A stretch of DNA of 60,000 nucleotides from Schmidtea polychroa (taxonomy: Eukaryota): the NCBI GenBank assembly GCA_044892525.1, contig CM097885.1:6822001-6882000 (forward strand). Reading direction: 5' to 3'. A program made the translations under genes and the position numbers. Within the stretch, counting starts at the first letter, position 1; each line of letters starts with the position of its first letter. Below the pieces are notes generated by a model. It had not been told where the DNA came from, made no database searches, and was given only the letters and a program-made list of their open reading frames with translations. Below are positions 10,495 through 59,400 of this stretch, one piece after another.

Positions 10495-10946
10495 TAATAA
10501 AGTTTGGATTATATATCAGGTCAAATGTTTGAGATAGGTTAGAAATTAAAATTATAATGGGTAAATATTGTAATCCTAATTCCATGTTTTTTATATCTAT
10601 TTGTAATGTGTGTTGGGCTGAAATGAAAAACAGGATAACCTAAACTCAGAGGAAAAACACTAGAAATAATATAAAGATCATAAATAAATTAGGAAAATAA
10701 ATTAAAAATTAGGAAAAATAATCACCATAAATAAAAAATAATAAATTAAAAAGAGAGAATTAAAACAAAAAAGGAAAATGAAAAATCAAGATAAGAAAAC
10801 CGAGAAAAATAGCAAAATAACATAAAAATTAAATAATTAATAAGAAAATAAATGAAAAATAAAAAAAGAATAAAGAAACAATAGGAAAATTAACGAAAAA
10901 CAGAGAAATTAAATTAAATTAAATAATTAAAAAGCGTCTCGATTTT

Positions 10947-35036: not shown

Positions 35037-35244
35037 AGTACTGAGGGTTCTACCCCTCTAACGTAAAGACCCCAGATAAGAATCACATTGTCAGACCACG
35101 TACACCATTAAATTAAAAAATAAAAAACTTAGTACCTATGAAAAACTTACTGCCTAGTATTTAGTAAAAACCAATTACTCGATAAATAATTTATTAATTT
35201 GATGAAAATGGCTTTGGGCTGGAGGAGGTAGAACCCTCACTAAT
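35037..35244. mobile_element. Small TIR element with decayed AGTAGTGAGG-type ends
   Basis: Left AGTACTGAGGGTTCTACCCCTC; right end revcomp ATTAGTGAGGGTTCTACCTCCTC. Confidence 0.65.
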
Positions 35245-36249
35245 TGGAAAAAAATAATAATTTTATTGACTTGGAAAATATTTGGGAAAAGTTCTTGGAA
35301 AATTTTGGGACTTATTTGAGTCACTTAGATATATCTTCACTACTCCATTTCTTGAGACTTGGAAAATTCTCTGATTTGCACCTGCGCAAATATTATCGCT
35401 ATAAAAATGTATTTTTGCAAACCTTTTAATAAATATATTTCAAAATCTCATTAAGTGAAACATGAAAGAACCCAAGGTTCAAAAAATAAAATGTGGTGGG
35501 ATCTACAACAAGTGAGATAATAATCATTATACATTTCCAAATCATTCTTTTCTTGTATAATTTCAACCAAATCATTTCAATGAGGAAATGTTGTTGTTAA
35601 ATCAGACAAAATACATTTTTTGTTATCATAGTTTTCCAAAGAAGATTTTTATGATTTTTGTAATAACATCTCATGATTTTTAGAATTTAAATTATAAATA
35701 ATATCCATACTTTTTTCAGAAAATGGTTTGAAGCAATCTAAATAATTTTGATGAGTTATTTTTTATTTTATGTTTTACACATTTTTTATTCCTTTATTTT
35801 TATTTTCTTCGCCTTAAAAACATTTGAGAGAATATTGTTTAGCTCGGTCTACGACCTCATCAACAGAGATGACTTTATTGGTAAATTTCCCTACTACTTT
35901 TCAAAAAAAAATATTTTTAAAATTAATAAAAATTTAAAGTGTAAAAAACAACAGCTTAGATAGCACAGTGGGAATCTATTTAACAAACATCAATAATAAA
36001 CATGGTTCAAATTCCAAGTAAAACTATTTTTATAAACAAATTTCAATGTTTCTGTTTTAATATAACAACTATTTTATAATTTGTTTTACTATTATAAAAT
36101 AAATATTTTGTGTATTTTGTGTGTATTAGTATTTCTTTTAATTAACTTACAAAATAAATATGAAAAAATAATTTTTTGAACCGAGTGTGGTGGCGAAACT
36201 GGAGACATCGCCACAACTCTTTCCAACACACCTGGGATTGATCCCTGAA

Positions 36250-36620
36250 TTGTTTGAATTTCTTTCAAACAGTTTTGATTCAAAATTTTCTAAACGTTGA
36301 AATAACTTGATTTATGCTATTCACAACGATCTGTTGGCAAAGTATTTGAGGATTTTCTTTCAAGCATTCTTAAAATGGTTCCCTCGGATTCATGTGTTCA
36401 AACGGATAGTGGCCTATCACAGTCAATTAAATTTTGCTAAAACTTCCCAGTATCATGTAAGTGTTGACGGACTTTGTTAAATATTCTTCTTCTTTATATC
36501 TGCGATTTTGTAAAGCTTCTTCATATAATTATCTTACTTAACCCTTAATAACCTAGAGTTTCAATTTTGATACCAATCTTTTAAACCGAATGTTCACATT
36601 ACTATTAGTTTTTTTTATAG
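36250..36620 (-). pseudogene. Possible remnant of a Tc1/mariner-related (DUF4817-like HTH) transposase N-terminus
   Basis: Minus-strand RRIFNKVRQHLHDTGKF...DCDRPLSV...ILRMLEENP; recognised from memory only. Confidence 0.4.
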
Positions 36621-41005: not shown

Positions 41006-44000
41006 TGTTCTCAATTTCGCTCATTTTTGTTCAAAACATTCAGGTGAGTTGTTATCTGGAAAGTTTCTTTGAGCTCAGTTTTGTTAAAACACTCACGGTA
41101 TTTTTGAGGGACGTGACACTGGAAATAAATTAACAATAGGTGGTCTTGCATACATGTTGTTGGTTTGAACTGTTGATTTATTTTAGAAATATGTATATTA
41201 AAAACATTTAAGGTATCATTCAGTAAAATAATATAGTATTTTTGAGTATTTTTAGTTGATTTATAAATAACAGTATTTTGATATATCAATAAAGACCATA
41301 TACTCCTAGTTTATCCGACAAAATATTCTGTCCCCCTATGGGTATTGCTAGCAAGGGTACTGGTCACACTCAACAAGTCGCAAGGGTATATTAATCATTT
41401 AGAAATTCTTAGGTAAGATAATCAGAAATTTGTGAATATTTTAAATGTAACTTTACACTTATGTCGAGCGACTAATTTATTGGTTAACCTTTTAGACATT
41501 TAAAGCAAAAGGTAATTTATTCATCTAATGTTCGTTACAATAGTTAATAATATGAGAAAAACATGGTCATTATTCATTGATAATTTTAAATTCTTTATCA
41601 TTTAGAGTAAATTTGTTTGAGGCAAAAATAATTAAAGGAGTCATAATAGAAATATGGTTATCATTTATCCAATTAAGGGGCTAATTAGTTAGAAATATAT
41701 ATTATAAAGTAACAATTATTTTCTAATTTAATTAGATGATCATTAGACGTAATATATCTTTGCGAGAAATTTAAGATGTTTGAGTAACCAAAACATGGAT
41801 ATTTTGTGCGATAAATTTATGAATATTGGTTAATTTTGTTATTTTTAGTCATTTAAAATAATATTTAGCAAAGGTAATTTAGCAAAATATCATTGAAAGA
41901 TTTATCCATCCGATAATAATATTCCTTCAATAGATTTTACCTTTAATATTCAACCGATTTAATTTCTAGAAATCTAATTAAAATCATAAAATTCCTTCAA
42001 TAAAGTTAAATTTTCTTTAGCCGTTGTCGATTTCCAACTTTTAAGTCAATATTTCTCAAGTTTTGTCACTGATGTCCCCACAATGAATAAAATAACTTCT
42101 TAAGTAAATAATTTAAAGCAATAACCTTTGATATCAATCCCAATTAATTCTAAAGATTTCAAATATTTCATTGTGAAAACCAAGTAAATTGATCATTAAC
42201 CCTAAACGACTTAATAAAACAATGGATAATTAATAAAAAACTGGTTCTAAAACATAAATCTAAATTACTGTGCAATAACATTCATCACAACCTAATAAAC
42301 CTTTAAAACGATATAATTTCACAGGAACTATTATTAATTCATAGCTAAATACTGACTATTTCCCTTTAAAATTTTACCAATAAGAACATTGTCGATTTAA
42401 ATAGAGATTTCAAACATTTCCACCTTAACCGATCCCTCACCAAATATTTCTATCATTTTAAACACCCCCTTAAAAATCATATATTACCATCTTAACCAAC
42501 CGACTTTAATATATCAGACCTTTAATATATCAATTCTCTTAAAATCCATAGAAAATTCTTCAAAATATGAATTTTATTTAATTGTTACAGACATCCGTCC
42601 ATTGAAATAATTTAGTATCTAAATTCAAAGAGTCCACTAAAAGATCAAAATTCACTAAAATCAATATTTAACCACATGTATCATCAAATACCTAACTAGA
42701 GATGAAATATATTGATTGATCATAATTCTTCATCGATCCAGCTAATTATATAGCAATTATAACGTGATATATCTTTCAAAATCACAAATTTCAGTATATT
42801 TTACAATAATTTTTACAAAAATTAAATAATAATCACTTGATTATTGTAAAAACTCTAATTATTAACCTAACTGTCATTAAAAATAATTTTTATTTAAAAG
42901 TAAATTTAAAAACAAGTCAATAAAATATAGCAAATTATCAAGAAATTAATTAAATTTGTCTTAGAATTAACACTAAAACGTTAAATTTCAAAATATTCTT
43001 TCAATTATTCACAAAAAGGTTAGTAATAATGTTAGTAAAATCCCGCTAACTCTAAAAATTACCAATGAATTTAATGCTAAATAATAACCAAAAATTTGCC
43101 TAAATAAAATCATTAAAACACACCAGTACCCTTACGAGCAGTACCAATTGTGAGCAGTACCCATAGAGGGAGAAAATATCTTGTCGGATAAACTCAGAGT
43201 ATATATAATAAAACGAATTAACAATAACTCCATCAAATTGAATCAGTCAAATTAACACAAATTTTGATAAAAAATCTTATTCTAAAATGTTAAGAAGCGT
43301 AAAGTCGAAAGATAATTTTAATAACACCGAGATAAATTAACAATATTATTCTCAGGTGGTAAGAATCTTCATTAAAGTTAGGAAATTATTTATTAATCTG
43401 TCATAAAATTATAATAAACTTCAAAGGGGTTAAAATAAGTGTTAGAATAATTCATTATTGGATTATGGAAGGTCAATGAAAATATACTGAGAAGTGGCAT
43501 GGATATATATTAATTTTATTTATTTAAAATTATTTCATAAAATTCATAAATTTCATAAAAATTCATAAAAACGTTCACTTTAATAAAAAAATATTTAATA
43601 CAATTTTAAAAGAAATATTTGCCCGGAGAATATAAATGATAATAATTATTGGGAAATCGAGAATCGGCGGCTATAAGTGATGAGGATATATAAAATTATT
43701 TCTATTATATGAGCTACTAAAGAATTAAAATATTTTAATAATGCGATAAACTTTTATTTAATAAAGTATTTAATCCCAAATGATTATTTTATTACATAAG
43801 AAACCGTGAAGGGTATTTGACAGAGTAATTATGATAAATTCATATTTTAAATTTTGATTAAGTCCTTTAATATTAGCAATTATTATTAAATTTACTATTT
43901 TACACTAAATATTTCATTTCACTTTAATGAAGATTCTTACCACCTGAGAATAATATTGTTAATTTATCTCGGTGTTATTAAAATTATCTTTCGACTTTAC

Positions 44001-46293
44001 GCTTCTTAACATTTTAGAATAAGATTTTTTATCAAAATTTGTGTTAATTTGACTGATTCAATTTGATGGAGTTATTGTTAATTCGTTTTATTATATATAC
44101 TCTGAGTTTATCCGACAAGATATTTTCTCCCTCTATGGGTACTGCTCACAATTGGTACTGCTCGTAAGGGTACTGGTGTGTTTTAATGATTTTATTTAGG
44201 CAAATTTTTGGTTATTATTTAGCATTAAATTCATTGGTAATTTTTAGAGTTAGCGGGATTTTACTAACATTATTACTAACCTTTTTGTGAATAATTGAAA
44301 GAATATTTTGAAATTTAACGTTTTAGTGTTAATTCTAAGACAAATTTAATTAATTTCTTGATAATTTGCTATATTTTATTGACTTGTTTTTAAATTTACT
44401 TTTAAATAAAAATTATTTTTAATGACAGTTAGGTTAATAATTAGAGTTTTTACAATAATCAAGTGATTATTATTTAATTTTTGTAAAAATTATTGTAAAA
44501 TATACTGAAATTTGTGATTTTGAAAGATATATCACGTTATAATTGCTATATAATTAGCTGGATCGATGAAGAATTATGATCAATCAATATATTTCATCTC
44601 TAGTTAGGTATTTGATGATACATGTGGTTAAATATTGATTTTAGTGAATTTTGATCTTTTAGTGGACTCTTTGAATTTAGATACTAAATTATTTCAATGG
44701 AAGGATGTCTGTAACAATTAAATAAAATTCATATTTTGAAGAATTTTCTATGGATTTTAAGAGAATTGATATATTAAAGGTCTGATATATTAAAGTCGGT
44801 TGGTTAAGATGGTAATATATGATTTTTAAGGGGGTGTTTAAAATGATAGAAATATTTGGTGAGGGATCGGTTAAGGTGGAAATGTTTGAAATCTCTATTT
44901 AAATCGACAATGTTCTTATTGGTAAAATTTTAAAGGGAAATAGTCAGTATTTAGCTATGAATTAATAATAGTTCCTGTGAAATTATATCGTTTTAAAGGT
45001 TTATTAGGTTGTGATGAATGTTATTGCACAGTAATTTAGATTTATGTTTTAGAACCAGTTTTTTATTAATTATCCATTGTTTTATTAAGTCGTTTAGGGT
45101 TAATGATCAATTTACTTGGTTTTCACAATGAAATATTTGAAATCTTTAGAATTAATTGGGATTGATATCAAAGGTTATTGCTTTAAATTATTTACTTAAG
45201 AAGTTATTTTATTCATTGTGGGGACATCAGTGACAAAACTTGAGAAATATTGACTTAAAAGTTGGAAATCGACAACGGCTAAAGAAAATTTAACTTTATT
45301 GAAGGAATTTTATGATTTTAATTAGATTTCTAGAAATTAAATCGGTTGAATATTAAAGGTAAAATCTATTGAAGGAATATTATTATCGGATGGATAAATC
45401 TTTCAATGATATTTTGCTAAATTACCTTTGCTAAATATTATTTTAAATGACTAAAAATAACAAAATTAACCAATATTCATAAATTTATCGCACAAAATAT
45501 CCATGTTTTGGTTACTCAAACATCTTAAATTTCTCGCAAAGATATATTACGTCTAATGATCATCTAATTAAATTAGAAAATAATTGTTACTTTATAATAT
45601 ATATTTCTAACTAATAAGCCCCTTAATTGGATAAATGATAACCATATTTCTATTATGACTCCTTTAATTATTTTTGCCTCAAACAAATTTACTCTAAATG
45701 ATAAAGAATTTAAAATTATCAATGAATAATGACCATGTTTTTCTCATATTATTAACTATTGTAACGAACATTAGATGAATAAATTACCTTTTGCTTTAAA
45801 TGTCTAAAAAGTTAACCAATAAATTAGTCGCTCGAAATAAGTGTAAAGTTACATTTAAAATATTCACAAATTTCTGATTATCTTACCTAAGAATTTCTAA
45901 ATGATTAATATACCCTTGCGACTTGTTGAGTGTGACCAGTACCCTTGCTAGCAATACCCATAGGGGGACAGAATATTTTGTCGGATAAACTAGGAGTATA
46001 TGGTCTTTATTGATATATCAAAATACTGTTATTTATAAATCAACTAAAAATACTCAAAAATACTATATTATTTTACTGAATGATACCTTAAATGTTTTTA
46101 ATATACATATTTCTAAAATAAATCAACAGTTCAAACCAACAACATGTATGCAAGACCACCCATTGTTAATTTATTTCCAGTGTCACGTCCCTCAAAAATA
46201 CCGTGAGTGTTTTAACAAAACTGAGCTCAAAGAAACTTTCCAGATAACAACTCACCTGAATGTTTTGAACAAAAATGAGCGAAATTGAGAACA
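41006..46293. repeat. Long inverted repeat: arms 41006-43378 and 43921-46293 (2373 bp each), 542-bp spacer
   Basis: Coordinate sum is 87299 at the outer ends, the inner ends and the mirrored ORFs 41011-41289/46010-46288; only a handful of substitutions seen. Confidence 0.95.
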
Positions 46294-46539
46294 GTAGTGA
46301 GGAATCTATGCACCCCAGCACCCCCACCCTCAAAAAAAAACAGCTCTATTGACCCATATTTTCCACATTTATATGCTTTTTTACCCCATATTCTTCACTT
46401 ATTTTAACTTTTAAACTTTGTCCCCTATTGCCATTAACCCTTAATTTCTTCCCTTAAAAGTAAAAAAGTTCGGAATAGATGTATTTATAGATTAGTAATT
46501 CCGAGAAAAGGTAACGGGGTGCATAGATTCCTCACTACT
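46293..46539. mobile_element. 247-bp element with perfect 24-bp TIRs starting AGTAGT (Polinton-like termini)
   Basis: AGTAGTGAGGAATCTATGCACCCC ... GGGGTGCATAGATTCCTCACTACT; no TSD. Confidence 0.75.
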
Positions 46540-46852
46540 TGGTCTTAAGGATTTAATGTTATAAGGATTTAATGTTATAAGAATATCAGATTACCTAATT
46601 CATAATGATCTAGGTCGCCTGATCACCTTAAGGTTTTGAAAGTTTTAAAAATAAAAAATTTTATGAAAATAGTAAAACTGCTTTGAGGGGACAGTGGTAT
46701 TTTTTTTTTTTTTTTTTTTTTTTTTCACTGTCCCCTCAACAGTTTTTTTTGATCCGGATCATTTTTTTTTTATTTATCAACCTCTTTCGTTTATCAAATC
46801 TCTTCCAATATACAAGCTGGCCAGACTCATACATCAGAATCAATCCGATAAT

Positions 46853-47075
46853 AGCAGCACGCCTTATTATTCGCTTCTCGCTCACGAAGTCGATTTCAAC
46901 GGCGTTTTAAGCGTGCTGCTCGAAAGTACAAATGAATTCGAAAGCGAATCCGAAAGAGGTCCGAAAACAACCAAGAAATAAATGTGCACATTATAGAATC
47001 GATCCGGGGGTGTTCGAAAGACAGGTGGCGATAATTACCGGTTCGCCACCATCACCCGTTTCAATATTTTTTTTT
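46853..47075 (+). ncRNA. Candidate structured ncRNA or ssDNA structure of unknown family, ending in a T9 run
   Basis: Stems AGCAGCACGC/GCGTGCTGCT, ATTCG/CGAAT, GGGTG/CACCC, GGTGGCGA/TCGCCACC; repeated CGAAA. Confidence 0.5.
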
Positions 47076-47220
47076 CATATTTATGTTTAAAAAATAATTA
47101 ATTAATAAAAAAATAAAATAAAATAAAATAAATAAAATAAAATATACAAGTACTTTATAAATATAAGATACCCACACTATTATTTTCAAATTTTTAATAT
47201 TATTTTATGTTGAAAAAAAA

Positions 47221-47294
47221 CTAACCACAGTTAGGATTTGAACCGCTATCTATTTGAACCACTGTGCCGGTCTAGCCCACTGCGCCATCAAGGT
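47221..47294 (-). ncRNA. tRNA-like Pol III unit 1
   Basis: A box TGGCGCAGTGG at position 8, B box GGTTCAAATCC, T8 terminator; cloverleaf poorly paired. Confidence 0.65.
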
Positions 47295-47461
47295 TTGAAT
47301 TTTTGTCATTTTTTAGACTATAAATAATCGATTCAAGTTAAAACGTTTTTGATCTTAAATTTCCAAGAGTTGCCGTTGACCAATCACCTTTAAAATTTGT
47401 ACAAGTACTAAATCGAGTATGCTGATCAATATTTTGTTTAAAAAAAAAATTTGAAAAAAAA

Positions 47462-47534
47462 TGACCGAAATGGGATTTGAACCCATTGGTATTGGCAATG
47501 CAGTCGAGTGCTATTACCACTAAGCTATACTCAA
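47462..47534 (-). ncRNA. tRNA-like Pol III unit 2, tRNA-Cys(GCA)-like
   Basis: GTATAGCTTAGTGGTAATAGCACTCGACTGCA...ATGGG-TTCAAAT-CCCAT then T8; D and T arms intact, acceptor and anticodon stems unpaired. Confidence 0.72.
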
Positions 47535-47694
47535 TATGAAATAAGTTGTTAATGTGTGACTATTTATTGATGAAATTAATAATTAATTATTCATTTTCTC
47601 GACAACTACCACTCAGATCCATCTGAAAATTTAAATATATACTAAAATCAGTACGCTGAATCAGATTCCGTTGAAAAAAAAATATCGAAAAAAA

Positions 47695-47769
47695 TTGACC
47701 AAAATCGAAAATTGAACCCGGTACTCCCGGTGATAAAATTGAAGCCTATTCCCACTCCGCTATAATGGC
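47695..47769 (-). ncRNA. tRNA-like Pol III unit 3
   Basis: A box TAGCGGAGTGG at position 8, degenerate B box GGTTCAATTTT, GCCA/TGGT end pairing, T7 terminator. Confidence 0.55.
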
Positions 47770-47825
47770 TTACATAATATATTTAATTAATCCTATTTTG
47801 TGTGTGTAAATTTTAATATATAAAA

Positions 47826-49118
47826 ATGAATAATATAAATCTTAAAATTCAAGAAAAAAATAAATTAAATCTTGATTATAATAAAGAATTTACTCATGAA
47901 ATCAAGAAAAATGATGTACTTAAAATCTCCCCAACATCAGGATCTATTGCAAACTTAAATCGTAGGGGTGATATAGTTTTTCAATCTCTTCAAACATCAA
48001 ACCCTATAGATATTTGTAATGCCAAATTATATTATAAAATCGAATTAGAAATTGAAGCAAACAAAGATATAACCCTAGAAAATAATTTCTTTCCAAATTT
48101 ATTCTCCAACATGAGATTAAAACTAGGATCATCAGAAATTGAAACTGTTTTGCATCCGGGAGTATATTCTACAATGTTAAATTTTATTTTGACTGGTTGT
48201 GATTATAAAAACGAATATGGTGAATTAACAGGTTGGATTCCTGATGTTAATAAAGGGGATTTAGATAAAGATGGTTTAGATGTAAACCATGGTTACCATA
48301 AAAGAGCTGAACTTTATAAATCTAAAAAATTTGAAGGTTATTTTGAATTAAAACACTTGTTTGGATTCCTTCAAAACTATAATCGTATACTTCATAATGT
48401 TTTTATAGAATTCATCTGTAATAGAGTAGAAGGTGATAAAAGATTGTTCTATGGAGCTGTAGATACAAAAGCTAAATTAAAATTATCAACACTTGAATTA
48501 CATATACCTGAATGGACATTAAACCCACATTCTGAGATTAAACTCCTTGAAAGATTAAATTCCAACAAGTCTATAAATGTAAATTATTTAAATAGAATCT
48601 GTAGTGAATTTAGTATGACAGAGGGTTCAACATATTCTATAAAGGTAGCAAATTTAGCATACCGACCAAGATATATCTTGATTGGATTCAAAGAAGTAGA
48701 TTCATCTTTCCAAAAAAATAACAACTTGTTTATTCAAAAGATTGGAGTTGATAATTTAAAAACAATCCAAATTCAATTAAATAGTTCTTATTATCCAATA
48801 AATAGAATGGAATTTAATATTGAAAATAATGAAAACATATTCCCATATCTAAATTATATTGAAACATGTTATGATTTCAAAGTTGAACCGCAATTAAGTT
48901 TAGAAGATTTCAAAAATTTATATTCTATATTTTGTATAAATGTTTCAGACCAAGATGATCGCCTAGCCATAAATAATGTTGATGTTACACTTCATGTAAC
49001 AAAGGATTCTAATTTTAAAGCTAAAGTATATACATTAATATTAGAAGAAAAGAAAATAGAAATGAAATTATATGGTGGAAAGATTTCAATAATCGAAAAT
49101 GTTAGGGGAGATTCTTGA
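47826..49118 (+). CDS. Polinton major capsid protein (double jelly-roll)
   Basis: 430 aa; ITLENNFFPNLFSNMRLKLGSSEIE, RPRYILIGF and LNSSYYP motifs; genomic context. Confidence 0.85.
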   Translation: MNNINLKIQEKNKLNLDYNKEFTHEIKKNDVLKISPTSGSIANLNRRGDIVFQSLQTSNPIDICNAKLYYKIELEIEANKDITLENNFFPNLFSNMRLKLGSSEIETVLHPGVYSTMLNFILTGCDYKNEYGELTGWIPDVNKGDLDKDGLDVNHGYHKRAELYKSKKFEGYFELKHLFGFLQNYNRILHNVFIEFICNRVEGDKRLFYGAVDTKAKLKLSTLELHIPEWTLNPHSEIKLLERLNSNKSINVNYLNRICSEFSMTEGSTYSIKVANLAYRPRYILIGFKEVDSSFQKNNNLFIQKIGVDNLKTIQIQLNSSYYPINRMEFNIENNENIFPYLNYIETCYDFKVEPQLSLEDFKNLYSIFCINVSDQDDRLAINNVDVTLHVTKDSNFKAKVYTLILEEKKIEMKLYGGKISIIENVRGDS

Positions 49119-49147: not shown

Positions 49148-50533
49148 ATGTCTTTAAATAAATATTGGAGATGTGAAACTTGTAATTGTCAAGTTACAAG
49201 ACATCATAAAGCAAGCCATCTTAAAACTAAAAAACATACAGGAGGCGATTTGCAATCTTCAAAAACAACATCTTCAATATTAAAACCTTTTACTACAGAA
49301 AAATATCCAGGTGAAAGACATTTATTTAAACACAACTATACTGGACCAGGAACAAGATTAGATATTAGATTAGATGAAAATAATAATCCCAAACAAGGAG
49401 AAGAACCAATAAATAGAATTGATCAAGCAGCTTTAAAACATGACATTGCATACAATTCAACAAATCTTAGAGATAGACATGTTGCAGATGTGAATTTAAT
49501 ACATGATTTAAATAGTATCCAAAATCCATCAACCCAAGAAAAGATTCAAAGAGCTCTAGTTAAATTAGCAATGAAAGGTAAGATTTTCATAGGCTTAGGA
49601 CACAGTCCGATCACCATGGGTGCAAGACTTCCTAGGAAAGCAAAAGATGTTGCTTATAAAAAGATTATCGAACAAGCAGACATTGAAAGATCCCTCGAGA
49701 GTACAGCCAAGACTAGTTTACAAACCCCAACAGAATCAGAAATAAAATATGCAAAGGAATTACACCATGAATTTAGAAAAAATAAAAAATATTTAAAAGT
49801 TCAAGTACATGAAAAAGATCAAACATGGTCTGCAGATTTAGTCTTTATGCCCAAATCATCAGACCCTGAAAAATATAAAATAATTTTAACTGTAATAGAT
49901 TTATATACAAGATTTGCTTTTGCAAGATGTTTAGAAAATAAAACAGGATATTCTATTACAGAAGCATTTGAAAATATATTTGAAGAAAATCAAAGAATCC
50001 CAAAATATTTATGGTGTGATAAAGGAACAGAATTTTATAACAAAGTTTTTACAAAGTTTTTAAATGAAAATGATATTAAATTATATTCAACAGAAAACGA
50101 AGGAAAAGCAGTCGTAGTTGAAAGATTAAATAGAACATTAAAAAATAAAATGTGGAAATATTTTACTGCTATTGGAAAACAAAAATGGAACAATGAATTG
50201 TTACAAAAGATTGTAAATGAATATAATAATGATGTACATAGTTCTATAAAATTAACACCTTTAAATGCTTCCACGAAGCCTGAAACCATTAAAGTGGTAA
50301 ATATTGAAAATGATGTTATTGAAAAACCAAAGTTTAAAATTGGTGACCGAGTAAGAATATTTAAATATAAAAATAAATTTGAAAAAGGATTCACAGCAAA
50401 ATGGACAAATGAAATTTTTATTATAAATAAAATACATTATACAACTCCAATAACATATACCATCTTTGATTTAAATAATGAAAAAATATTAGGTAGATTT
50501 TATAATAATGAGTTACAGAAAACAGATTTTTAA
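49148..50533 (+). CDS. Fusion protein: C2H2 Zn finger, parvovirus-type PLA2, retroviral-like integrase
   Basis: CETC..H..TKKH; HNYTGPGT...DQAALKHDIAY; integrase D-D-E in WSADLV, WCDKGTEF, VVERLNRTLK; C-terminal KFKIGDRVRI. Confidence 0.93.
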   Translation: MSLNKYWRCETCNCQVTRHHKASHLKTKKHTGGDLQSSKTTSSILKPFTTEKYPGERHLFKHNYTGPGTRLDIRLDENNNPKQGEEPINRIDQAALKHDIAYNSTNLRDRHVADVNLIHDLNSIQNPSTQEKIQRALVKLAMKGKIFIGLGHSPITMGARLPRKAKDVAYKKIIEQADIERSLESTAKTSLQTPTESEIKYAKELHHEFRKNKKYLKVQVHEKDQTWSADLVFMPKSSDPEKYKIILTVIDLYTRFAFARCLENKTGYSITEAFENIFEENQRIPKYLWCDKGTEFYNKVFTKFLNENDIKLYSTENEGKAVVVERLNRTLKNKMWKYFTAIGKQKWNNELLQKIVNEYNNDVHSSIKLTPLNASTKPETIKVVNIENDVIEKPKFKIGDRVRIFKYKNKFEKGFTAKWTNEIFIINKIHYTTPITYTIFDLNNEKILGRFYNNELQKTDF

Positions 50534-50544
50534 GTCGACAAGCC

Positions 50545-51336
50545 CTAAAACAAACTTTTCCATATTTCAGCTTCTTCTCTATCCAAATAAATATAATTAT
50601 ATTTTTCTTTCCAATGATTATCAACAAACATATCAAACATATTCTTATCAGGTTCAACATTTGAAAATAAATCATTATAAATCATATTCTTATCACGGCG
50701 ATCTAATTTAAAAAATATAAAACAATTGGAATTATTTCTTATTGAATTTTTATCTAAAGCATAATATGTTTGAGATATATAAATAACATTACAATTATTA
50801 TGTCGACCTCGTGTAAAGTAACTCTTTTGAATCTCTTGATTTTTCATATTAACAACATCATCAAATATAACTAGATTCTTTTTATCTTTAGGAAGTAAAT
50901 CACAATGTAAAACATCTTCAGGTTTATTAGAGAATAAAACTTGAATTGCCTCCTGCCCTTCTTCACAAATATAATCATTTTTATTACTAATATCTGATTC
51001 TAAAATCTTTTCCTTATACCAATCAACCATATCACAAGGTTGAAAAACTTCTTCAGGACACCTATGTTGATTTTTAAAAATATCAATTATTGCTTTTTTA
51101 GTTAATTTATTTTCAAATCCACATTTCAAAAGTTGTAATTCTGGTTGATTTATGGTTGTAGAATAAAAGATTAAATTATTATAATCTAAAAAATCATCTT
51201 CAAGTAACATTCTCAAAACAAGTACATTCTTTCCACATCCAGAAGAACCAACAATTAATAATCTAAAATTATCAGGAAATACTTTATTATTAAATTTACT
51301 CTTATGTCTATTTAAAATTGGTTTCCAAGTATCCAT
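50545..51336 (-). CDS. A32/FtsK-like DNA packaging ATPase
   Basis: Walker A GSSGCGKN, Walker B LVIFDD, RGRH, ISQTY, IRNN. Confidence 0.92.
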   Translation of the reverse strand: MDTWKPILNRHKSKFNNKVFPDNFRLLIVGSSGCGKNVLVLRMLLEDDFLDYNNLIFYSTTINQPELQLLKCGFENKLTKKAIIDIFKNQHRCPEEVFQPCDMVDWYKEKILESDISNKNDYICEEGQEAIQVLFSNKPEDVLHCDLLPKDKKNLVIFDDVVNMKNQEIQKSYFTRGRHNNCNVIYISQTYYALDKNSIRNNSNCFIFFKLDRRDKNMIYNDLFSNVEPDKNMFDMFVDNHWKEKYNYIYLDREEAEIWKSLF

Positions 51337-51352
51337 TTTTATTTATTATAAA

Positions 51353-51946
51353 ATGACAACTGAAGAATCTTTGCAAGAATTAATAAATTCAAATAAAAAT
51401 AAATCAGTAGTAATTGATGGTAAAAAATATTTTATTGGAAAACATGTAAAAGAACAAGTTAGAGCGAAGCTCCACGAAGCTAAAGAAGGTGGCATTCTTC
51501 CATTAGCTGCTTTAATACCTGCAATCATTGCTGGTTTATCAGGTGCTGCTGGAATAGCTGGAGGAATTGCAACTACAGTTCAAAAAGCTAAAGAATCTCA
51601 AAAGACAGACCTAGAAAAAGAAAAACTACAAACTGAAATCGATTCAATGAAGAAGGTAGGGCAAGCTAAAGGGGGAGTGTCCGTTGGAAAGGGTCTCTAT
51701 CTTAATCCATATGAGGGGAGTCGGCAAAAGTCTCAGGGCAAAGGTCTCTATCTTGATCCTTATAAAGGTAGAGGTTTAAATGATTTTTTAAAAAATCAAA
51801 TTTCTACATCTGAATCTTTATCTTTAAAAGATAAAGAAGATTTAAAAAAAATATGTAAATCTTTAAAGAATGGATGTCTTTGTAAAACTAAAAATGGCAA
51901 AGGTTTATACTTGAAGCCCTTTCCAACGGATCCTTTACCAAAATGA
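51353..51946 (+). CDS. Putative virion core protein with an adenovirus pX(Mu)-like segment
   Basis: GGILPLAALIPAIIAGLSGAAGIAGGIA; three GKGLYLxP(Y/F) repeats. Confidence 0.65.
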   Translation: MTTEESLQELINSNKNKSVVIDGKKYFIGKHVKEQVRAKLHEAKEGGILPLAALIPAIIAGLSGAAGIAGGIATTVQKAKESQKTDLEKEKLQTEIDSMKKVGQAKGGVSVGKGLYLNPYEGSRQKSQGKGLYLDPYKGRGLNDFLKNQISTSESLSLKDKEDLKKICKSLKNGCLCKTKNGKGLYLKPFPTDPLPK

Positions 51947-51968
51947 TACCATTTTTAATACCATAAAA

Positions 51969-52838
51969 ATGGTATATGAAGAAAGATTAGCACTTTTAAA
52001 AAAATTACAATCAGAACAAGATAAATATAATAAAAAAGATACAAGTCAACATGCTGAATCTATAATATTAAATGAGGTAATAACACAACAACAGGGGCCA
52101 ACAATTAAAGCTATAAAAGGATTAAATGAGCAAGCAAAATTTAAAGAGTTAGAAGATGGAGGAAGTCCCCATGAACAAAAAATAAAAAAACTAGAGTGGA
52201 AGGAAGAATCCAGTGAAAGTCATTCTGAAAGAAATCAAAGAAAACGCAGAAGAATTTCTAATGCGGAAGAAGAAGAAGAAATGTTTTTAAAAACAAAACC
52301 TCTTAAAGTTGATCCTAAAATTAGAGATGATTTACCTCCTTCAATTAGACCCACATTTAATACTAATACTGAAGGATATCAAATAATAACAATTAATAAA
52401 CAAAACTTTACTTTATATTCAAATTCAGAAAATAAATCACGTATTCATTCACAAAATGTTTATAATAATGAATATTTAGACTTTGAATTTACAGATGATT
52501 TTTATAAATTACTTTGTGGATATTCTTCAGATGATCTTGAAGAAATTAAAAAATATTTAAATTTAATAAGATTAATAAGAGCTGGTTCTAAAGCAAAATA
52601 TATTCAAGATTTAAAGAATTATTTAGATAAAAATGAAAAGGGTTATGTTGTTACAGAGGGAGAGGGATTAATTAGTGAAGGAAATCCCATCAATCTTTTT
52701 ATTGAATTAAGAAAACTATTAGCTGCAAGGAAAGCAGGACATAATAATTTAGATTCTGATATTTTAAAGATTTCTAAAGATTTGTTAAAACAAGGAATAA
52801 TTTCAAAAGATAAATTTAATAAGTATACGAAGTTATAA
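51969..52838 (+). CDS. Conserved Polinton protein of unknown function
   Basis: 289-aa ORF; GEGL..NPINLFIELRKLLAARKAGHNN...LLKQGII C-terminal motif; basic NLS-like RKRRR. Confidence 0.7.
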   Translation: MVYEERLALLKKLQSEQDKYNKKDTSQHAESIILNEVITQQQGPTIKAIKGLNEQAKFKELEDGGSPHEQKIKKLEWKEESSESHSERNQRKRRRISNAEEEEEMFLKTKPLKVDPKIRDDLPPSIRPTFNTNTEGYQIITINKQNFTLYSNSENKSRIHSQNVYNNEYLDFEFTDDFYKLLCGYSSDDLEEIKKYLNLIRLIRAGSKAKYIQDLKNYLDKNEKGYVVTEGEGLISEGNPINLFIELRKLLAARKAGHNNLDSDILKISKDLLKQGIISKDKFNKYTKL

Positions 52839-52890
52839 ATACGAAGTTATAAAATACGTAGTTTTAAAATACGAAGTTTTAAAATACAAA

Positions 52891-53358
52891 ATGACTCCTT
52901 CAATCGAATACCCCTCTATATTAGATTTTTTAAAAACATTTGGAATAAATGCAAAAACAAATTTTGATTTAAAAGATTATGCAAATTATTTAAATTTAAA
53001 AATTAAAATATTAATGAATGATGAATTATCAAGTCTGGAGAGTCCCCTGAATATAATAATCAATTATCAAAATTCAAATGAAAAAGGATCTCATTGGGTT
53101 TGTATATATAAGAAATCTATCTACTTTGATTCTTTTGGGATTAAACCTACTAAAGAAGTTGAAGATTATCTCTTGAGGGGTTCTCCGATTGATTCCCCAA
53201 ATGGTTATACTTTTAACTCTTTACAAGTTCAACCTTTGAATACTAAAATATGTGGTATTTTAAGTTTATATGTTTTGTATAGATTGAATATGGGGCATAC
53301 GCAGGATTTTGAATCTATAATTCAAGAAATTTATAATGATCTAGAATCTCTACTATAA
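52891..53358 (+). CDS. Adenain-like cysteine maturation protease
   Basis: GSHWVC, YFDSFG, QVQ..CG give the H-D-Q-C catalytic order. Confidence 0.92.
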   Translation: MTPSIEYPSILDFLKTFGINAKTNFDLKDYANYLNLKIKILMNDELSSLESPLNIIINYQNSNEKGSHWVCIYKKSIYFDSFGIKPTKEVEDYLLRGSPIDSPNGYTFNSLQVQPLNTKICGILSLYVLYRLNMGHTQDFESIIQEIYNDLESLL

Positions 53359-53406
53359 GGATTTTTACTATAAGGATTTTTACTATATGAATTTACTACT
53401 AAAGAA

Positions 53407-54171
53407 ATGGAGCTTCACAACCCTCCGGAAGATAATTTAAAAAAAATGGTAAACATAATGTCAGATAAATATTCAAGAACTTTATCTATAAATTCAAAAG
53501 AATCAGACTTTACTATAAACTTTCAAGATTCAATTAAATTAGATCAAAATTTAAATTATGAATTGGGGCTATTATGGTTTTGTGCTTATAATACTATTTT
53601 TAATATAACTAAAGATAATAATAAATTTACTATTCAAACTCGTGATGGGCATAAACCAGAAATTATAACAATAGAACCTGGGGCATATGAGATAAAAGAT
53701 TTAAATGATATACTTTCTAAAAAAACAAATGAAGGAATTAAAATTAAAATGGATATACCAACTTCAAAATGTGTAATGACTTTGAAGAATATAAAAATTA
53801 GTTTTTTAGATAATTGTTTCTTTCACACAGTTTTAGGATTTAAACCTATGGATATAACAATAAAAGAAGATAAAATAATAACATCAGAACATATTATAAA
53901 AATAATAAATACAAACACAATAAATATTCATTGCGATTGTATAACAGGTTCTTATAATAATGGTAAACAAACAAATGTTTTATATTCCTTTCCCTCAAAC
54001 ACAGTTCCTATGGGATATAAAATAGTTGAAAGAATGAATCCTCCAAATTATTTACCTTTATGTAGAAAATATATAATGGATATTAATTTTAAAATTCTTA
54101 ATCAAGAAGGAGAATTGATTGATTTTAATGGAGAAGAGATTTCAATGTATTTACATTTGAAACAGGTTTAA
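53407..54171 (+). CDS. Minor capsid protein (penton, single jelly-roll)
   Basis: IKLD..YELGL, IEPGAYEI, INIHCDCI..SY.NG...VLYSF, G.LIDFNGE motifs. Confidence 0.85.
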   Translation: MELHNPPEDNLKKMVNIMSDKYSRTLSINSKESDFTINFQDSIKLDQNLNYELGLLWFCAYNTIFNITKDNNKFTIQTRDGHKPEIITIEPGAYEIKDLNDILSKKTNEGIKIKMDIPTSKCVMTLKNIKISFLDNCFFHTVLGFKPMDITIKEDKIITSEHIIKIINTNTINIHCDCITGSYNNGKQTNVLYSFPSNTVPMGYKIVERMNPPNYLPLCRKYIMDINFKILNQEGELIDFNGEEISMYLHLKQV

Positions 54172-54197
54172 CGAAGTCCATTTTAAATTATTAATAA

Positions 54198-55208
54198 ATG
54201 AGTTCTTATATTCCATGTAATAGAGGTGGTGGAACAATAAAAACAGGGTTTAATACAGAAGAAATATTAACTTTAACAGAAAATAAATATATTAATGAAA
54301 GAGGTGATTCAATGAAGGGTGATTTAATTTTAAATGGACACAAGATAAAAGAATTATCTTTTCCAACTGATGAAGCTGATGCAGTTAATAAGAAATATGT
54401 AGATGGTGTTAAAAAATATACTGATTTAACAACAACAAGAATTGAAAGTTCATTAACAACAAAAATTGATTCAATGGAATCAAAGCTTAATAATATCGAA
54501 CAACGATTTAATGATAAATTTGACAAGTTACAAAGTCTGTTAACTGAACAAGTTGTAAAGTTAAATACTGCTATATTAAATTCTAAAGATAAACAAATTA
54601 TGAATACTAAATTTAATGCAATATATAATATAATAAATGAGATGATTACATCATTTAATAAAAGAATTTCAAATTTAGAGTCTCATGGAACACACATTAA
54701 CACCACACATAGTATTAGAAAAAGAGCTGCTGAATTAGAACAGAATAAAACATTATTACCCCATACATATAAACATTTTATAGAACCAAGTTTAATAACA
54801 ACAAACAGTAAAGAATGGGGTGTTTTTATGGTTGTAAAAATTATTGATCCTTATTTCTTTTTGTTTGATGATGATAATGAAAGAATGAAATGGTTTGTGA
54901 AATGTGATTATAATAGTAAGCTTGAAAAGGGTGATGTTATAATGACTAGTTATGATTTACCACACGGAGATTGGTATGTTAATACTCATTCACATGGACT
55001 ACATAAAGTTAAAAGTAAGAATATTCATTTTTCTAGTTCACTTGTACAATATATAGATTTAATATTTTATGAAAAAAAGGTTGATGTTGATGAAGTTCGT
55101 AAAGCATTGAGAGAATTGTATAAAGATATCCTCTCAACAAGAGTTTCTTTTGATATCCGAGTATTGGTGCCAGATGGTGCTCAGAAGAATAAAGTCTTAT
55201 TTTTTTAA
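54198..55208 (+). CDS. Putative fibre/spike-like protein
   Basis: GDSMKGDLILNGHKIKEL..P....DAVNKKYVD fibre-shaft-like motif, long coiled coil, C-terminal globular region. Confidence 0.6.
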   Translation: MSSYIPCNRGGGTIKTGFNTEEILTLTENKYINERGDSMKGDLILNGHKIKELSFPTDEADAVNKKYVDGVKKYTDLTTTRIESSLTTKIDSMESKLNNIEQRFNDKFDKLQSLLTEQVVKLNTAILNSKDKQIMNTKFNAIYNIINEMITSFNKRISNLESHGTHINTTHSIRKRAAELEQNKTLLPHTYKHFIEPSLITTNSKEWGVFMVVKIIDPYFFLFDDDNERMKWFVKCDYNSKLEKGDVIMTSYDLPHGDWYVNTHSHGLHKVKSKNIHFSSSLVQYIDLIFYEKKVDVDEVRKALRELYKDILSTRVSFDIRVLVPDGAQKNKVLFF

Positions 55209-55216
55209 TTATTAAA

Positions 55217-55813
55217 ATGGAAGAAGTAAGAGAAGAAAAATTTTACCCCGAATTGAGATCATCAGGATATTATTCTTCCAAGGCCTCGGCTCCCACAGAA
55301 CTTGAAATTATGAGAGTAAAAGAATTTAAATCAGAAACCTTACATTTACAAGATTTATTAAAGCATTATAAAAAAATTAAAAATAGATGGAATAAAGGGA
55401 ATACAGTTTTAAAAGTTATAGGTTATTCTTTAGGATTTGCATCTGCAATATTAACAGTTATTTTACCCATAACTTTACCAGTTGTTACTCTTGCACCTGT
55501 AATACTTGGAAGTATTTCTGTGGCTGATGGTTTCTTAACTGAAATAGTTTCATTATCTTATACTTCTAAAAAGAAAAGTTTATATAGAGAAGTTTGTTTA
55601 TCAATAGAATTAGGAATCTCTAAATTATTTTTATTTCAATTAAAAGCTTTGGAAGATGGAATCCTGACAGACGAAGAAATAATGAAATCAAATCAAATAA
55701 TACAAGATATAAAGAATGAGGTTATAAGATTAAAAAGGGAGGGCATGGTGGCTAATGTTATAAGTAATAAAAAAACATCTCGAGAAAAATGGTTAAAGAA
55801 TTCTTACTTATAA
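55217..55813 (+). CDS. Putative two-TM membrane protein
   Basis: 198-aa ORF with a hydrophobic hairpin VLKVIGYSLGFASAILTVILPITLPVVTLAPVILGSISV. Confidence 0.7.
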   Translation: MEEVREEKFYPELRSSGYYSSKASAPTELEIMRVKEFKSETLHLQDLLKHYKKIKNRWNKGNTVLKVIGYSLGFASAILTVILPITLPVVTLAPVILGSISVADGFLTEIVSLSYTSKKKSLYREVCLSIELGISKLFLFQLKALEDGILTDEEIMKSNQIIQDIKNEVIRLKREGMVANVISNKKTSREKWLKNSYL

Positions 55814-55907
55814 AATGGGTGTATTTTTAAAAAAGTAGATCAGGTTGCTATAGTTGCTTAAATTAATTGTCGACATTTTATTATTAAAAAATTAAATATC
55901 GTTTGTT

Positions 55908-56425
55908 TCAGTTATGGTTGAAAGCCAACCTATGAATCATTAATTTATGATCTTTAAATTCTTTATCACTTAGACCTTTTATATATTCAGGATCAGTATT
56001 AAAATATTTAAGTTCTAAACATATAGGATTAAAAACTTGAGAATATAAAGGTTTCTCGATTTCTCTCTCGGGATAAATAATTTCAACATTATAAATATCA
56101 AGATCAGTAATCTTTGTATCATATAACTTATTCAACTTTTCTAGATTTTTTATTATAGGGATTAAATTATGAATCTTTTATCATCATAATTTGATAATGA
56201 TACTTTTTGAGATTCTATCAAGTGAACATCATGGTTTTCACTTTTAAGTTGATGTATTTCATCAATTTTATCTTTATGATTTGGATTCAATGTATCTATA
56301 TAATCTTGATGAGAAAGATTCTTTGCCACCACTCTCTGTATTCCTTTACATCTGTTATCCTTTAAATTAGTAATATTTTTTATAATTTCAAAAATGTTAT
56401 TTTCTTGATTTTTAGTTTCCATCAT
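55908..56425 (-). pseudogene. Frameshifted stand-alone paralogue of the pPolB C-terminal region
   Basis: KGIQ..HQDY..HQLKSENH..NYDDKRFI and LELKYFNTDPEYI align with the last ~165 aa of pPolB. Confidence 0.85.
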
Positions 56426-56449
56426 TTTATAGTGTTAAAATTCTAATTC

Positions 56450-59400
56450 TTAGACCAGTCGTAATTGATTTATAATTATTTCTGCAGTAATGCTTTTTAA
56501 CATTAATTTATGTGATTTAAAGTCTTCTGGTGTTAGTCCTTGGATATATTCAGGATCAGTATTAAAATATTTAAGTTCTATAGGTTTTATATTTTGAACT
56601 TGATTATATAAAGGTTTAGGAATTAATATTTCAGGATATTGGATTTCTACTTTAGCAAGTTGAAGGTCTGTAATCTCTAGGTTATAAATTTCATTTATTT
56701 TATCAAGATTTTTTATTATAGGGATTAAATCATTTCCAATAGGTAATGTTGTCTTCAAGTCAGAAAGTATAAATCTTTTATCATCATAATTTGTTATAGC
56801 AATCTTGTTACACTCTTCAAGATATATATTATGTTTCTCTGATTTAAGATGATGGGTTTTAGCAATTTTATTTTTATAATTTATATTTAATGAATCTTTA
56901 TACTCTTGATGTGTGAAGGTTTTTGACACTGATTTTTGAATTCCTTTACTTTTATTTTCTTTATAGCTTTTCGGGTTTTCAGGGAATGAAGGATATTCAA
57001 ATGTGTGATCTATTTCAACAGATCCTTCTCCCTCCCCTATTATAAATTTTATTGTATGCTCTTTCATAATTGGTTTGTCTTTCATTTCAAGAGAATATTG
57101 TTTAGGTCTAATAAACACTCCTCCACTTATTGGAGTATTTGGTTTTTCATCTTTAAAAGTAAATAATTCTCCAGAGTTGTTTATTAATTTATTTAAGGTT
57201 TCGTTTTCACTTATTTCCTTTTTTAAATCTTTACTATGACCTTTTAAAAACATACTATCAGTGTCCATAGCATGCATGGATATTCGATCTCCAAAATGTG
57301 GTACTAGAACATCATAGTAGGCTTCATACATTTGAAGCTTTGAAAGTTCTAAAATTGAAAACCCTATAAAGATTGGTTTATTATAAGTTTTTACAGAGTT
57401 TTTAATCTCTATGGCTATAAGGTTACTAGAGAATATCTCGGCATTTTTAAATGTGGGCTTTCCAATTATCCGGTTGTACCTATTAAGGTCTTTTGATGTA
57501 TTGGTCAAAAGCTCTACACGTGTGTACTTGTCTATATTCTCCATGGTCTTTCCAAAGACCGCATTGTTCAGGAGTTTGTAAATCATATCAAGAAATGCAT
57601 TTCCAGCTCTCTTTGCTGCATTTCTTTTCAAAATATTTCCCTCTATGAATTTTTTCATAAAAGGGGCTTGTCGAAATTTAATAATGGAATGTACTTTTTT
57701 TAAAACCATTCCATGGGAGAGATAAAACTGAAGGAGTCTATAATGACAAAGGTAATCAGTTTTATCGGTCTGATCGCATAAAAGTTTTATACAGGGCGAT
57801 CTATCCTGAGCCATCTGCCAGTCTGAAAGTTCTTCAGTCGAGATCTTTCTTCTTACTGGAGCAAATGGAAAGAATCTTGTCCTGGATTTTATTTCATTGG
57901 GATATTCAAGATCGCATTCTATGACATATCCAAATTGAGAATCTTTTGGTGTTTTTAGAATTTCTTGTATTAATTCCTCAGTGGGCTCTTCCCAGGTGAA
58001 CTTGCCAATTGGAAGGTATTGAGTCATTACTCCCGCATATAAAGCTGTTGCATCTATATACATTATTTCAGAAGGATTAGAAAGACCTTCCATTATTTCC
58101 TTACGATCTTCTGGGTTTGTTATTTCTACATATAGAGCATCAGGATCTTTGAAAAATTTAGGATAAAGAGTTGTAAAATTATTAGCATTTATTTCTCTAT
58201 TCCCTTGTACTGAAGAAATACCTCCTCTAATATTATGTTTATATACATTAAACATATCAAGCTCAACTAATAATTCAATAGTTTTATTTCTTACTGCTAC
58301 ATCTTCATCAGTCCATATGGTATATAATAATATATCCCAAGCTAGAGAGGGAGCGGTTATATAATTATAAGGTTTTAATTCAAAAGCTTTTGAAAATGTC
58401 TCGAAGCAATCAGCTAAGATATAAACATCCAAGGAAAGATACATGTCAGTATATTCTCCAAGGTTTCTACAGTTGAATAGATTCCACATTTTAACTGCAC
58501 GGGAATATTCCTGATCAGAAATCCCTGATTGTGTTAAAACAGAAAAGAAATCTTCTTGGGGTGGGAGTAATTCATTATATTTTTCAAAGGAGTCTATATA
58601 ATCATATGGATAGATTCCTTTTGCTAGACAGGTATTATATTCCTCTAATGGAATATTGTTTTTTAATAACACATGTTCTTTTGTATATTTAAAATCCTCA
58701 GGGTTCATAGTTTTAGCAATCCCATCCAAAGACATCCCTAAGAAATTTAACGAGTCCAAAAACTTAAAGCATCCATATTGAATGCTTTTATATTTTTCTT
58801 TTGTAAGTCCAATAACCTTGAAAGAGTTTTTAGCATTTGCGGCCAGATGCTTAATGAATAGGTGAATATCATAGCCAAAAAGATTGTGAAATATAAATGG
58901 TATGTGTGTTGGTTTTTTACAATTGAGATTACATTTTTTATGGGCTGCTCCTCTGTAATTATTTTCTCTTTTAAAATGATCATGGTCTGCAACCTTTGGC
59001 TCCTCATCCTCAAACTCTTGTTTACACATCCAGCAGTGTGTTGCATTTTTATATTCTTCCTCTTGTTCTTCTGAAAAATTCATAGGAAAGTTGGATTTTA
59101 ATATTATATATAATTCATGTTCTAGATTATTTAAAGTTTTAACAAAATGATCTAGAGTCTCTTTGTCAGAAGTTCCTCTAAATGAATATTCTCTAGATTC
59201 TACAAGTTCTGGATAATTACTTTTAAAAAACATTTTATAAGCAGAGGGTAATTGTTTTGTTAGTTTTACAGTATTAGTTTTTGTTCGTCTTAGTTTTACA
59301 TTTATAGCTTCAAAATCACAATAAACCACTCCCAATGCTTCTAATAGATTGGAATAGTTTTTAAACCTCATATTAGCATTTTTCTTGTGTGGCATTTTTA

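Follow-up and report, generated by a model that had tools for sequence, protein, structure and literature searches.

A modular cassette of putative RNA polymerase III genes in the arm of a Polinton

The 60,000-nt stretch of DNA analysed here (the window) contains an intact Polinton that extends beyond the window end (Table 1). The element carries the four core genes of a Polinton/Maverick, encoding protein-primed polymerase B (pPolB), rve integrase, packaging ATPase, and double jelly-roll capsid, all scoring above cut-off (PF03175, PF00665, PF04665, and PF21738, respectively), together with terminal inverted repeats and, as a target duplication, the same 6 bases flanking both ends. Capsid matches are ~100% identical in 98 of the 98 cases scored, and the family to which the element belongs (family A) is young and large. 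Each terminal repeat has an internal 24-bp inverted copy of its very end (window positions 46293–46316 and 46516–46539), so that the terminus can fold back across ~250 bases. The integrase ORF has a zinc-finger-like stretch at its N-terminus and a parvovirus-type PLA2-like domain fused ahead of the rve core. Just downstream of the polymerase gene, a small ORF and repeats (55938–56425) duplicate the C-terminal part of the polymerase (70–73% identical). Outside the element, a perfect 2373-bp inverted repeat with a 542-bp centre (41006–46293) stops exactly at the Polinton left end, and fragments of eukaryotic small-subunit rRNA, rearranged and decayed, are present at 9828–10542.

Table 1. Features of the Polinton and of the older Polinton relic in the window
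Feature	Position	Strand	Details
Family-B relic (older Polinton)	35954–36270	+	Short unit with A box from 35961, B box 43 nt on, and T5; start of long gene
Intact Polinton, 14.9 kb	from 46293		Ends ~1.2 kb beyond the window end
Left terminal inverted repeat	46293–46669		~377 bp; 96% versus right repeat; 6-bp target duplication outside
Long gene candidate, ~385 nt	46674–47055	−	A box 47048–47038, B box 47005–46995; internal T4 at 46967; 12-bp and 25-bp hairpins on a 10-bp helix
3′ part of long gene candidate	46746–46674	−	A-rich-loop hairpin, then T4, T4, T6 (46677, 46669, 46658)
Near-perfect hairpin, 61 nt, 25 bp	46791–46851	−	Pre-miRNA size; inside long gene candidate
Unit 1, commonest short unit	47213–47294	−	A box 47287–47277, B box 47244–47234, T8 from 47220
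Unit 2, tRNA-Cys(GCA)-derived	47454–47534	−	A box 47527–47517, B box 47483–47473, T8 from 47461
Unit 3, tRNA-derived	47688–47769	−	A box 47762–47752, B box 47718–47708 (2 mismatches), T7 from 47694
Double jelly-roll major capsid gene	47826–49118	+	PF21738; divergent from cassette
Rest of Polinton	49148–60000		Includes five to six further ORFs
rve integrase ORF with PLA2-like domain	49148–50533		Within rest of Polinton
A32-like ATPase	50545–51336	−	
Protein-primed polymerase B	from 56450	−	Runs past window end

The non-coding arm ahead of the capsid gene contains three short units on the minus strand, each with an A box, a B box, and a T7–8 run. The initial annotation had proposed three such tRNA-like units, and we recovered them at the same coordinates, far above expectation from shuffles: a generic model of A box, B box, and T run with ≤2 mismatches (settings chosen with knowledge of the units) identified 4 sites in the 60-kb window, versus 0.01 on average across 100 dinucleotide shuffles, and none when the local 1 kb was shuffled 2000 times. 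The fourth site (35961, plus strand) belongs to a relic of a second Polinton family, family B. The A boxes of the three units start at 47762, 47527, and 47287, giving spacings of 235 and 240 bp, and the distances from A box to B box are 44, 44, and 43 nt. In tRNA numbering, unit 3 has its position 1 at 47769, which is 57 nt from the capsid ATG at 47826, as had been claimed. Units 1 and 2 have no internal terminator; the interior of unit 3 has three T4 runs, and that of unit 1 has a second A-box-like and a second B-box-like copy. The whole element contains only four A/B pairs, all on one strand of the 1.1-kb non-coding arm and all with a spacing of 43–44 nt, and these pairs, with their closing T runs (T7–8 in the short units), have the composition of type 2 Pol III genes.

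Comparison with the host genome indicates where the short units came from. The likeness of unit 2 to tRNA-Cys(GCA), noted at the outset together with its unpaired stems, holds in both respects: 28 of 32 bases in the 5′ half and 11 of 11 B-box bases agree with host tRNA-Cys(GCA), and the acceptor and 3′ anticodon strands are lost. On this agreement, unit 2 is a descendant of a host tRNA-Cys gene. The two inter-unit spacers are homologous over ~65 nt, as had also been observed (score of 27, versus a best score of 22 in 300 shuffles; the match spans a T run), and a tandem duplication that included the spacers appears to have produced units 2 and 3, with unit 3 as the duplicate of the unit-2 module. 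Functional tRNA genes the units are not: ARAGORN identifies 0 tRNA genes among the three, the Rfam tRNA model scores unit 2 alone, at 26.7 bits and under the 29-bit cut-off, and the predicted folds are not cloverleaf. Fold z-scores of the short units are +1.1, −2.6, and +0.3, and that of the family-B unit is +0.1, which is no better than shuffles or, if better, not as a tRNA; no fold is shared. Host tRNA genes lie in long tandem arrays with periods of 424 bp (Lys), 278 bp (Arg), and 281 bp (Cys); the host tRNA-Cys(GCA) arrays give 1009 motif matches, with T4 as the sole terminator of the Cys unit. The idea that a tandem array of host tRNA genes was captured was considered and rejected, the unit spacers being without a match to the tRNA-Cys array spacer (Cys, Lys, and Arg arrays compared).

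The array has a fourth, longer member that lies outside the coordinates of the initial annotation. This long gene candidate lies downstream of unit 1 on the same strand, has a 43-nt A/B spacing, and brings the cassette to its end at the inner edge of the left terminal inverted repeat. Shuffling the long block 3000 times gives an A/B pair in 3 cases. The predicted fold has an energy of −137.5 kcal/mol and a z-score of −9.18, which 0 of 100 shuffles reach. A T4 run is present ~90 nt into the long gene in 20 of 20 family-A rows, with no shared place in family B; this run is as long as the first of the terminal runs. Since the host tRNA-Cys array ends on T4 only, Pol III may stop at the internal T4, which could shorten the predicted long RNA. 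Avoidance of T runs was tried as support for a long transcript and rejected, because T5 runs are not significantly depleted in the long gene (P = 0.37; 97 of 280 host 330-mers also have none), and contig depth, with a maximum at 46900–47001, was not used as expression evidence, because it gives no ranking of parts and the runs may derive from DNA. Rfam gave no match for the long gene and no VA match up to an E-value of 10.

To place these parts within the genome, we counted matches in the 781-Mb assembly, obtaining 3170 for unit 1, 3265 for unit 2, and 3090 for the long-gene head. Taking exact unit-1 loci in genome order, we examined the first 30, among which two pairs each represent one element; unit 1 adjoins the capsid start in 14, the polymerase start at the other arm in 14, protease and minor-capsid-like ORFs in 1, and cassette parts only in 1. 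Unit 1 therefore adjoins Polinton genes in 29 of the 30, in agreement with the earlier view that the units are part of the Polinton and not a free SINE; the tie to the capsid gene that had been proposed is not supported, given the 14 loci beside the polymerase start. The long gene follows unit 1 in 28 of the 30 loci, and for exact unit-2 matches, an exact long-gene head lies ≤1.4 kb downstream in 35 of 40 cases. When the first 100 exact heads are paired at distances of 10–21 kb, 18 pairs face outward and 2 inward. Free dispersed copies, as of a tRNA-derived SINE, are absent from the loci examined, from which ~1900 inexact unit-2 genome matches, without placement relative to Polinton arms, stand apart. 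The placements show that the putative cassette belongs to this Polinton clade, as one to three short units followed by a long A/B-box gene, facing the terminus. A 1245-bp satellite (L190, G000:C1:160000–170000) comprises short 17-bp repeats and 290–430 bp from an old Polinton arm that contains a diverged unit 2; the unit-2 piece is 83% identical and continues into a decayed small ORF of the arm, and for this reason looks taken from a Polinton arm.

The layout of the cassette varies between copies. We compared 60 loci chosen by capsid gene (including one duplicate), comprising the 30 nearest and 30 more divergent ones. All three units are present in 30 of the 30 near copies, 9 of which have ~253 bp extra, holding an 84-codon ORF, between units 2 and 1. 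The divergent loci comprise 17 with one or two unit-1 copies only, 1 with units 3 and 2 only, 2 with all three units, 3 with the downstream block and no short unit, and 7 lacking both units and long gene within 1.5 kb; units 2 and 3 are missing in 27 of these 30. The expectation that the units would be kept in other copies of the element is borne out by the near copies. The number of short units per sister copy is 0–3, often at both arms and sometimes with a small ORF in between. These counts indicate that the 240-bp period is incidental and that units 2 and 3 are optional, so that the initially described array of three at 240 and 235 bp is correct for the spacing in the window and does not represent a repeat period. 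Contig joints from 47315 to 47819 and from 47339 to 47809 correspond to layouts lacking units 2 and 3, as in the genome. The 84-codon ORF (for example, L047:3327–3581; absent at window position ~47340) has many copies and no Pfam match, and occupies the interval from unit 2 to unit 1 or that from the capsid start to unit 1, with its stop codon in the unit-1 leader; the extra 253 bp was considered as a fourth short unit and rejected, being this ORF. Sister elements (L191–L192, equal to G000:C1:171300–186400, and L243–L271) have a near-identical capsid module, a polymerase that is only 46–57% identical, other terminal repeats, and unit 1 and the long gene on both arms. Swapping of modules and ends among sister Polintons looks frequent.

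Diversity by part confirms that the Pol III signals are kept while the interiors diverge. The 54 copies of unit 1 fall into 31 haplotypes; the B box is the same in every copy (54 of 54), and all but one retain an intact A box (53 of 54). In divergent loci (BLAST-picked rows; 22 unit rows and 18 capsid rows), unit-1 diversity is 0.02 in the A box, 0.00 in the B box, and 0.01 in the T run, versus 0.30 in the leader, 0.10 in the interior, and 0.18 in the tail; the value at capsid third codon positions is 0.11. The leader and tail therefore vary faster than capsid third codon positions, and non-box sequence is unconstrained. The long-gene body, in contrast, has a diversity of 0.033 versus 0.110 at capsid third positions, while the B-box end of the long gene reaches 0.10, with the T-arm closed in some copies only. 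The poor folds of the short units, their unconstrained non-box sequence, and the presence of all three in only 2 of 30 divergent copies argue against the earlier proposal that the short units encode a product of the VA or TMER type; the long gene downstream appears the better analogue.

A comparison across families bears on whether the long-gene fold is maintained. In the family-B relic of the window, the short unit has a different interior, and the start of a homologous long gene comes next; its surroundings (35020–36300) include a short terminal-repeat-like inverted pair and a C-terminal fragment of a polymerase. In 24 family-B loci, Polinton protein matches are present in 17, with a capsid 41–43% identical, and the short unit is directly ahead of the long block in 20. 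The family-B long block is 65–70% identical to that of the window over its full length, and the short unit keeps the A box, the 43-nt spacing, the B box, and the T run, with an interior unrelated to that of family A. The block is internal in these relics, and the integrase start follows in 6 of the 24 loci.

We mapped the structure predicted for the window on 17 family-B rows, in which 112 of 121 base pairs were scorable: 82 are unchanged, 8 are kept with a one-sided change, 9 are doubly compensated, and 13 are broken. With partners re-dealt as a null, the means are 1.7 doubly compensated and 23.4 broken, and 0 of 20,000 trials reach 9. Compensatory changes thus exceed chance, as for a conserved structured RNA, between two lineages only, so that each change counts as one event. 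The 25-bp hairpin is the helix with the most compensated changes, and joint structure prediction recovers this hairpin and one small hairpin, nothing more. The family-B rows are decayed, and 5 of the 17 fold better on the other strand. The comparison shows that the predicted long-gene fold has been under selection and kept between distant families.

Searches further afield delimit the cassette. Distant Polinton families of the same genome have no units in 20 stretches of 10 kb, indicating that the cassette is not needed by Polintons in general. Capsids 73–74% identical are present in related species (P0002, P0003). Viral contigs searched for relatives yielded 0 loci; capsid relatives are present at 38 metagenome loci, mostly short ones that lack ends (103,841 bases in all), none of which yielded a tRNA, unit, or long-gene match; and 16 A/B-motif matches in viral contigs had no Polinton gene or block match.

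We propose that the Polinton arm carries a modular Pol III cassette in which a long, dsRNA-rich RNA would be the product and the short units would serve mainly as TFIIIC/Pol III landing pads, a reading that we give an even chance of being right. Host TFIIIC would bind the A and B boxes, and Pol III would transcribe both the short units and the long gene. The short units would yield 75–80-nt oligo-U RNAs, the sequence of which would be of little importance; by recruiting TFIIIC and TFIIIB, they would hold the arm in an open state and stimulate or protect both the long gene and the divergent first gene. Such a recruiting role would explain why the short units differ in number and interior but retain their boxes, spacing, and terminator. 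The long gene would yield an RNA of ~385 nt, rich in long helices, as the effector, and this RNA would most likely be a decoy or substrate for the host double-stranded-RNA and small-RNA machinery (Dicer-type enzymes). By analogy, an effector role like that of VA RNA for adenovirus is the most likely for the long RNA. Planarian Polintons are piRNA targets and are de-silenced during differentiation, according to part of the account in PMC8532177; if the host is a planarian, such de-silenced, piRNA-targeted Polintons would give the long RNA a purpose. A more specific version, that the clade encodes a VA-RNA counterpart, a ~385-nt Pol III RNA expressed from thousands of arms that would dampen or feed small-RNA silencing and that would be boosted by interchangeable tRNA-derived units, is offered tentatively and is, in our estimate, somewhat likelier to be wrong than right.

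It is unlikely that the cassette acts instead at the level of DNA, with the short units as a TFIIIC-bound chromatin barrier, the folded block as a single-stranded DNA signal for replication, integration, or packaging near strand 3′ ends, and any RNA as a by-product. tRNA genes can act as chromatin barriers, and in such barriers, as in tRNA-derived SINEs, boxes are kept while the body diverges. The subterminal, outward-facing place of the block (18 versus 2 head pairs), equally frequent at both arms (14 and 14 of 30), would suit a signal of this kind, but the element in the window has the block at one arm only, and the block is internal in family-B relics. Compensated pairs also fit a DNA hairpin, as does the internal T4 a role in DNA, but the strand asymmetry of the fold is large for RNA (−137.5 kcal/mol with 16 G–U pairs for the sense strand versus −108.0 with 3 for the antisense strand) and small for DNA (−64.9 versus −60.4). 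Moreover, the retained terminators would be superfluous at a site that served binding alone.

We consider it improbable that the short tRNA-like RNAs are themselves active, as decoys or small-RNA precursors whose rapid change would represent escape from host small RNAs. Each unit does keep an A box, a B box, and a strong T7–8 end at a tRNA-like distance, but the three internal T4 runs of unit 3 and the absence of units 2 and 3 from most divergent loci tell against functional short products. Diversifying selection could account for the unit-1 leader and tail exceeding capsid third positions and for the shuffling of unit-1 blocks (all four combinations in 113 of 153 site pairs; 37 rows picked by motif), and unit 2 is nearly fixed (6 haplotypes in 33 copies), whereas the missing shared fold and the unrelated interiors of families A and B count against active short RNAs. 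A passenger origin, in which a captured SINE-like element and tRNA pseudogenes hitch-hike and conservation reflects family youth and gene conversion, has little probability and is already weakened: the tRNA-Cys ancestry of unit 2, the SINE-like plan of the long gene (tRNA-like head, body, and A-rich stretch), the unit-2 piece in the satellite, and the unplaced inexact unit-2 matches favour it, but counts are not above those of other parts of the element, exact unit-2 matches are linked to the long-gene head, the A-rich stretch is a hairpin loop and not a tail, constraint and compensation extend across families, the satellite piece looks Polinton-derived, and the spacers do not match the host tRNA-Cys array spacer.

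The preferred reading, a Pol III cassette with a long RNA as its product, matters in view of how Polintons are studied. Annotation of Polintons covers little besides their proteins, and these elements may or may not act as true viruses with counter-defence. If the reading is true, Polintons would have a viral-type non-protein function in the form of a conserved Pol III RNA that is encoded by the element and has a selected fold. On the more specific version, that of a VA-RNA counterpart, Pol III RNA genes would be a recurring and overlooked Polinton trait, with counter-defence as in adenoviruses and herpesviruses. Degenerate Pol III-type genes are a class missed by ARAGORN and Rfam, and the trait would be invisible to such tRNA and Rfam scans. 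Because the element is young, with ~3000 arms in this genome, the putative Pol III RNA is directly testable. The literature searched, at the level of titles and abstracts, describes no Pol III RNA genes or cassette in Polintons or adintoviruses, with subscription papers, Repbase reports, and supplements possibly bearing on novelty, and the terms tRNA, non-coding, hairpin, and RNA polymerase are absent from PMC8097293.

In its proteins and ends, the element resembles alpha-type adintoviruses and Polintons, with which it shares pPolB, rve integrase, A32-like ATPase, jelly-roll capsid, terminal inverted repeats, and a 6-bp target duplication. It also shares the PLA2-like domain, tied to Alpha virion modules in a section of PMC8502044; here, however, the domain is fused to the integrase ORF. 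Sequence of tRNA origin has precedents within elements of the Polinton supergroup: a Polinton-like virus collection has 558 Rfam tRNA hits, as reported in portions of PMC12220804, and MELD viruses with other replicases have predicted tRNA genes, as described in passages of PMC8502044. The tRNA genes of Polinton-like and MELD viruses are recognised by Rfam or ARAGORN and have been interpreted as codon compensation, whereas the Polinton units fail both and cannot serve translation, and such scans would consequently miss them. With tRNA-derived SINEs, the units share an A/B-box head of tRNA origin; they differ in having no free dispersed copies in the examined loci and no poly-A tail with target duplication, and in having a fixed place in the Polinton arm.

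The closest comparisons are with viral Pol III genes. Adenovirus VA RNA is ~160 nt long, and PKR, its best-known target, is a vertebrate protein. The long gene candidate resembles the genes for VA RNA I and II in its gene-internal type 2 promoter, its T4 end, and its highly base-paired, here predicted, RNA, and its carrier is, like an adenovirus, a linear dsDNA element with a protein-primed polymerase and a jelly-roll capsid. It differs in its length of ~385 nt, in having no Rfam match, in its place in the arms (often both), and in the short tRNA-derived units ahead of it. The TMERs of MHV68 keep a cloverleaf that is cut off from miRNA hairpins. The Polinton cassette is likewise a tRNA-derived Pol III gene cluster with type 2 promoters at a genome end; unit 1 has its second A-box-like copy, and in the long gene a hairpin of pre-miRNA size comes after a tRNA-like head. 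The Polinton units, in contrast, have no cloverleaf, the short units end on T7–8 with no hairpin behind, and the long-gene head forms at most a T-arm, so that a cloverleaf joined to pre-miRNA hairpins in one transcript is not found. Adenovirus VA and MHV68 TMER genes have type 2 (A/B box) promoters and T4 ends, and TMERs have repeated A boxes, according to parts of PMC8223928. The comparison suggests that the cassette would work like the type 2 Pol III genes for VA RNAs and TMERs while being a member of neither group.
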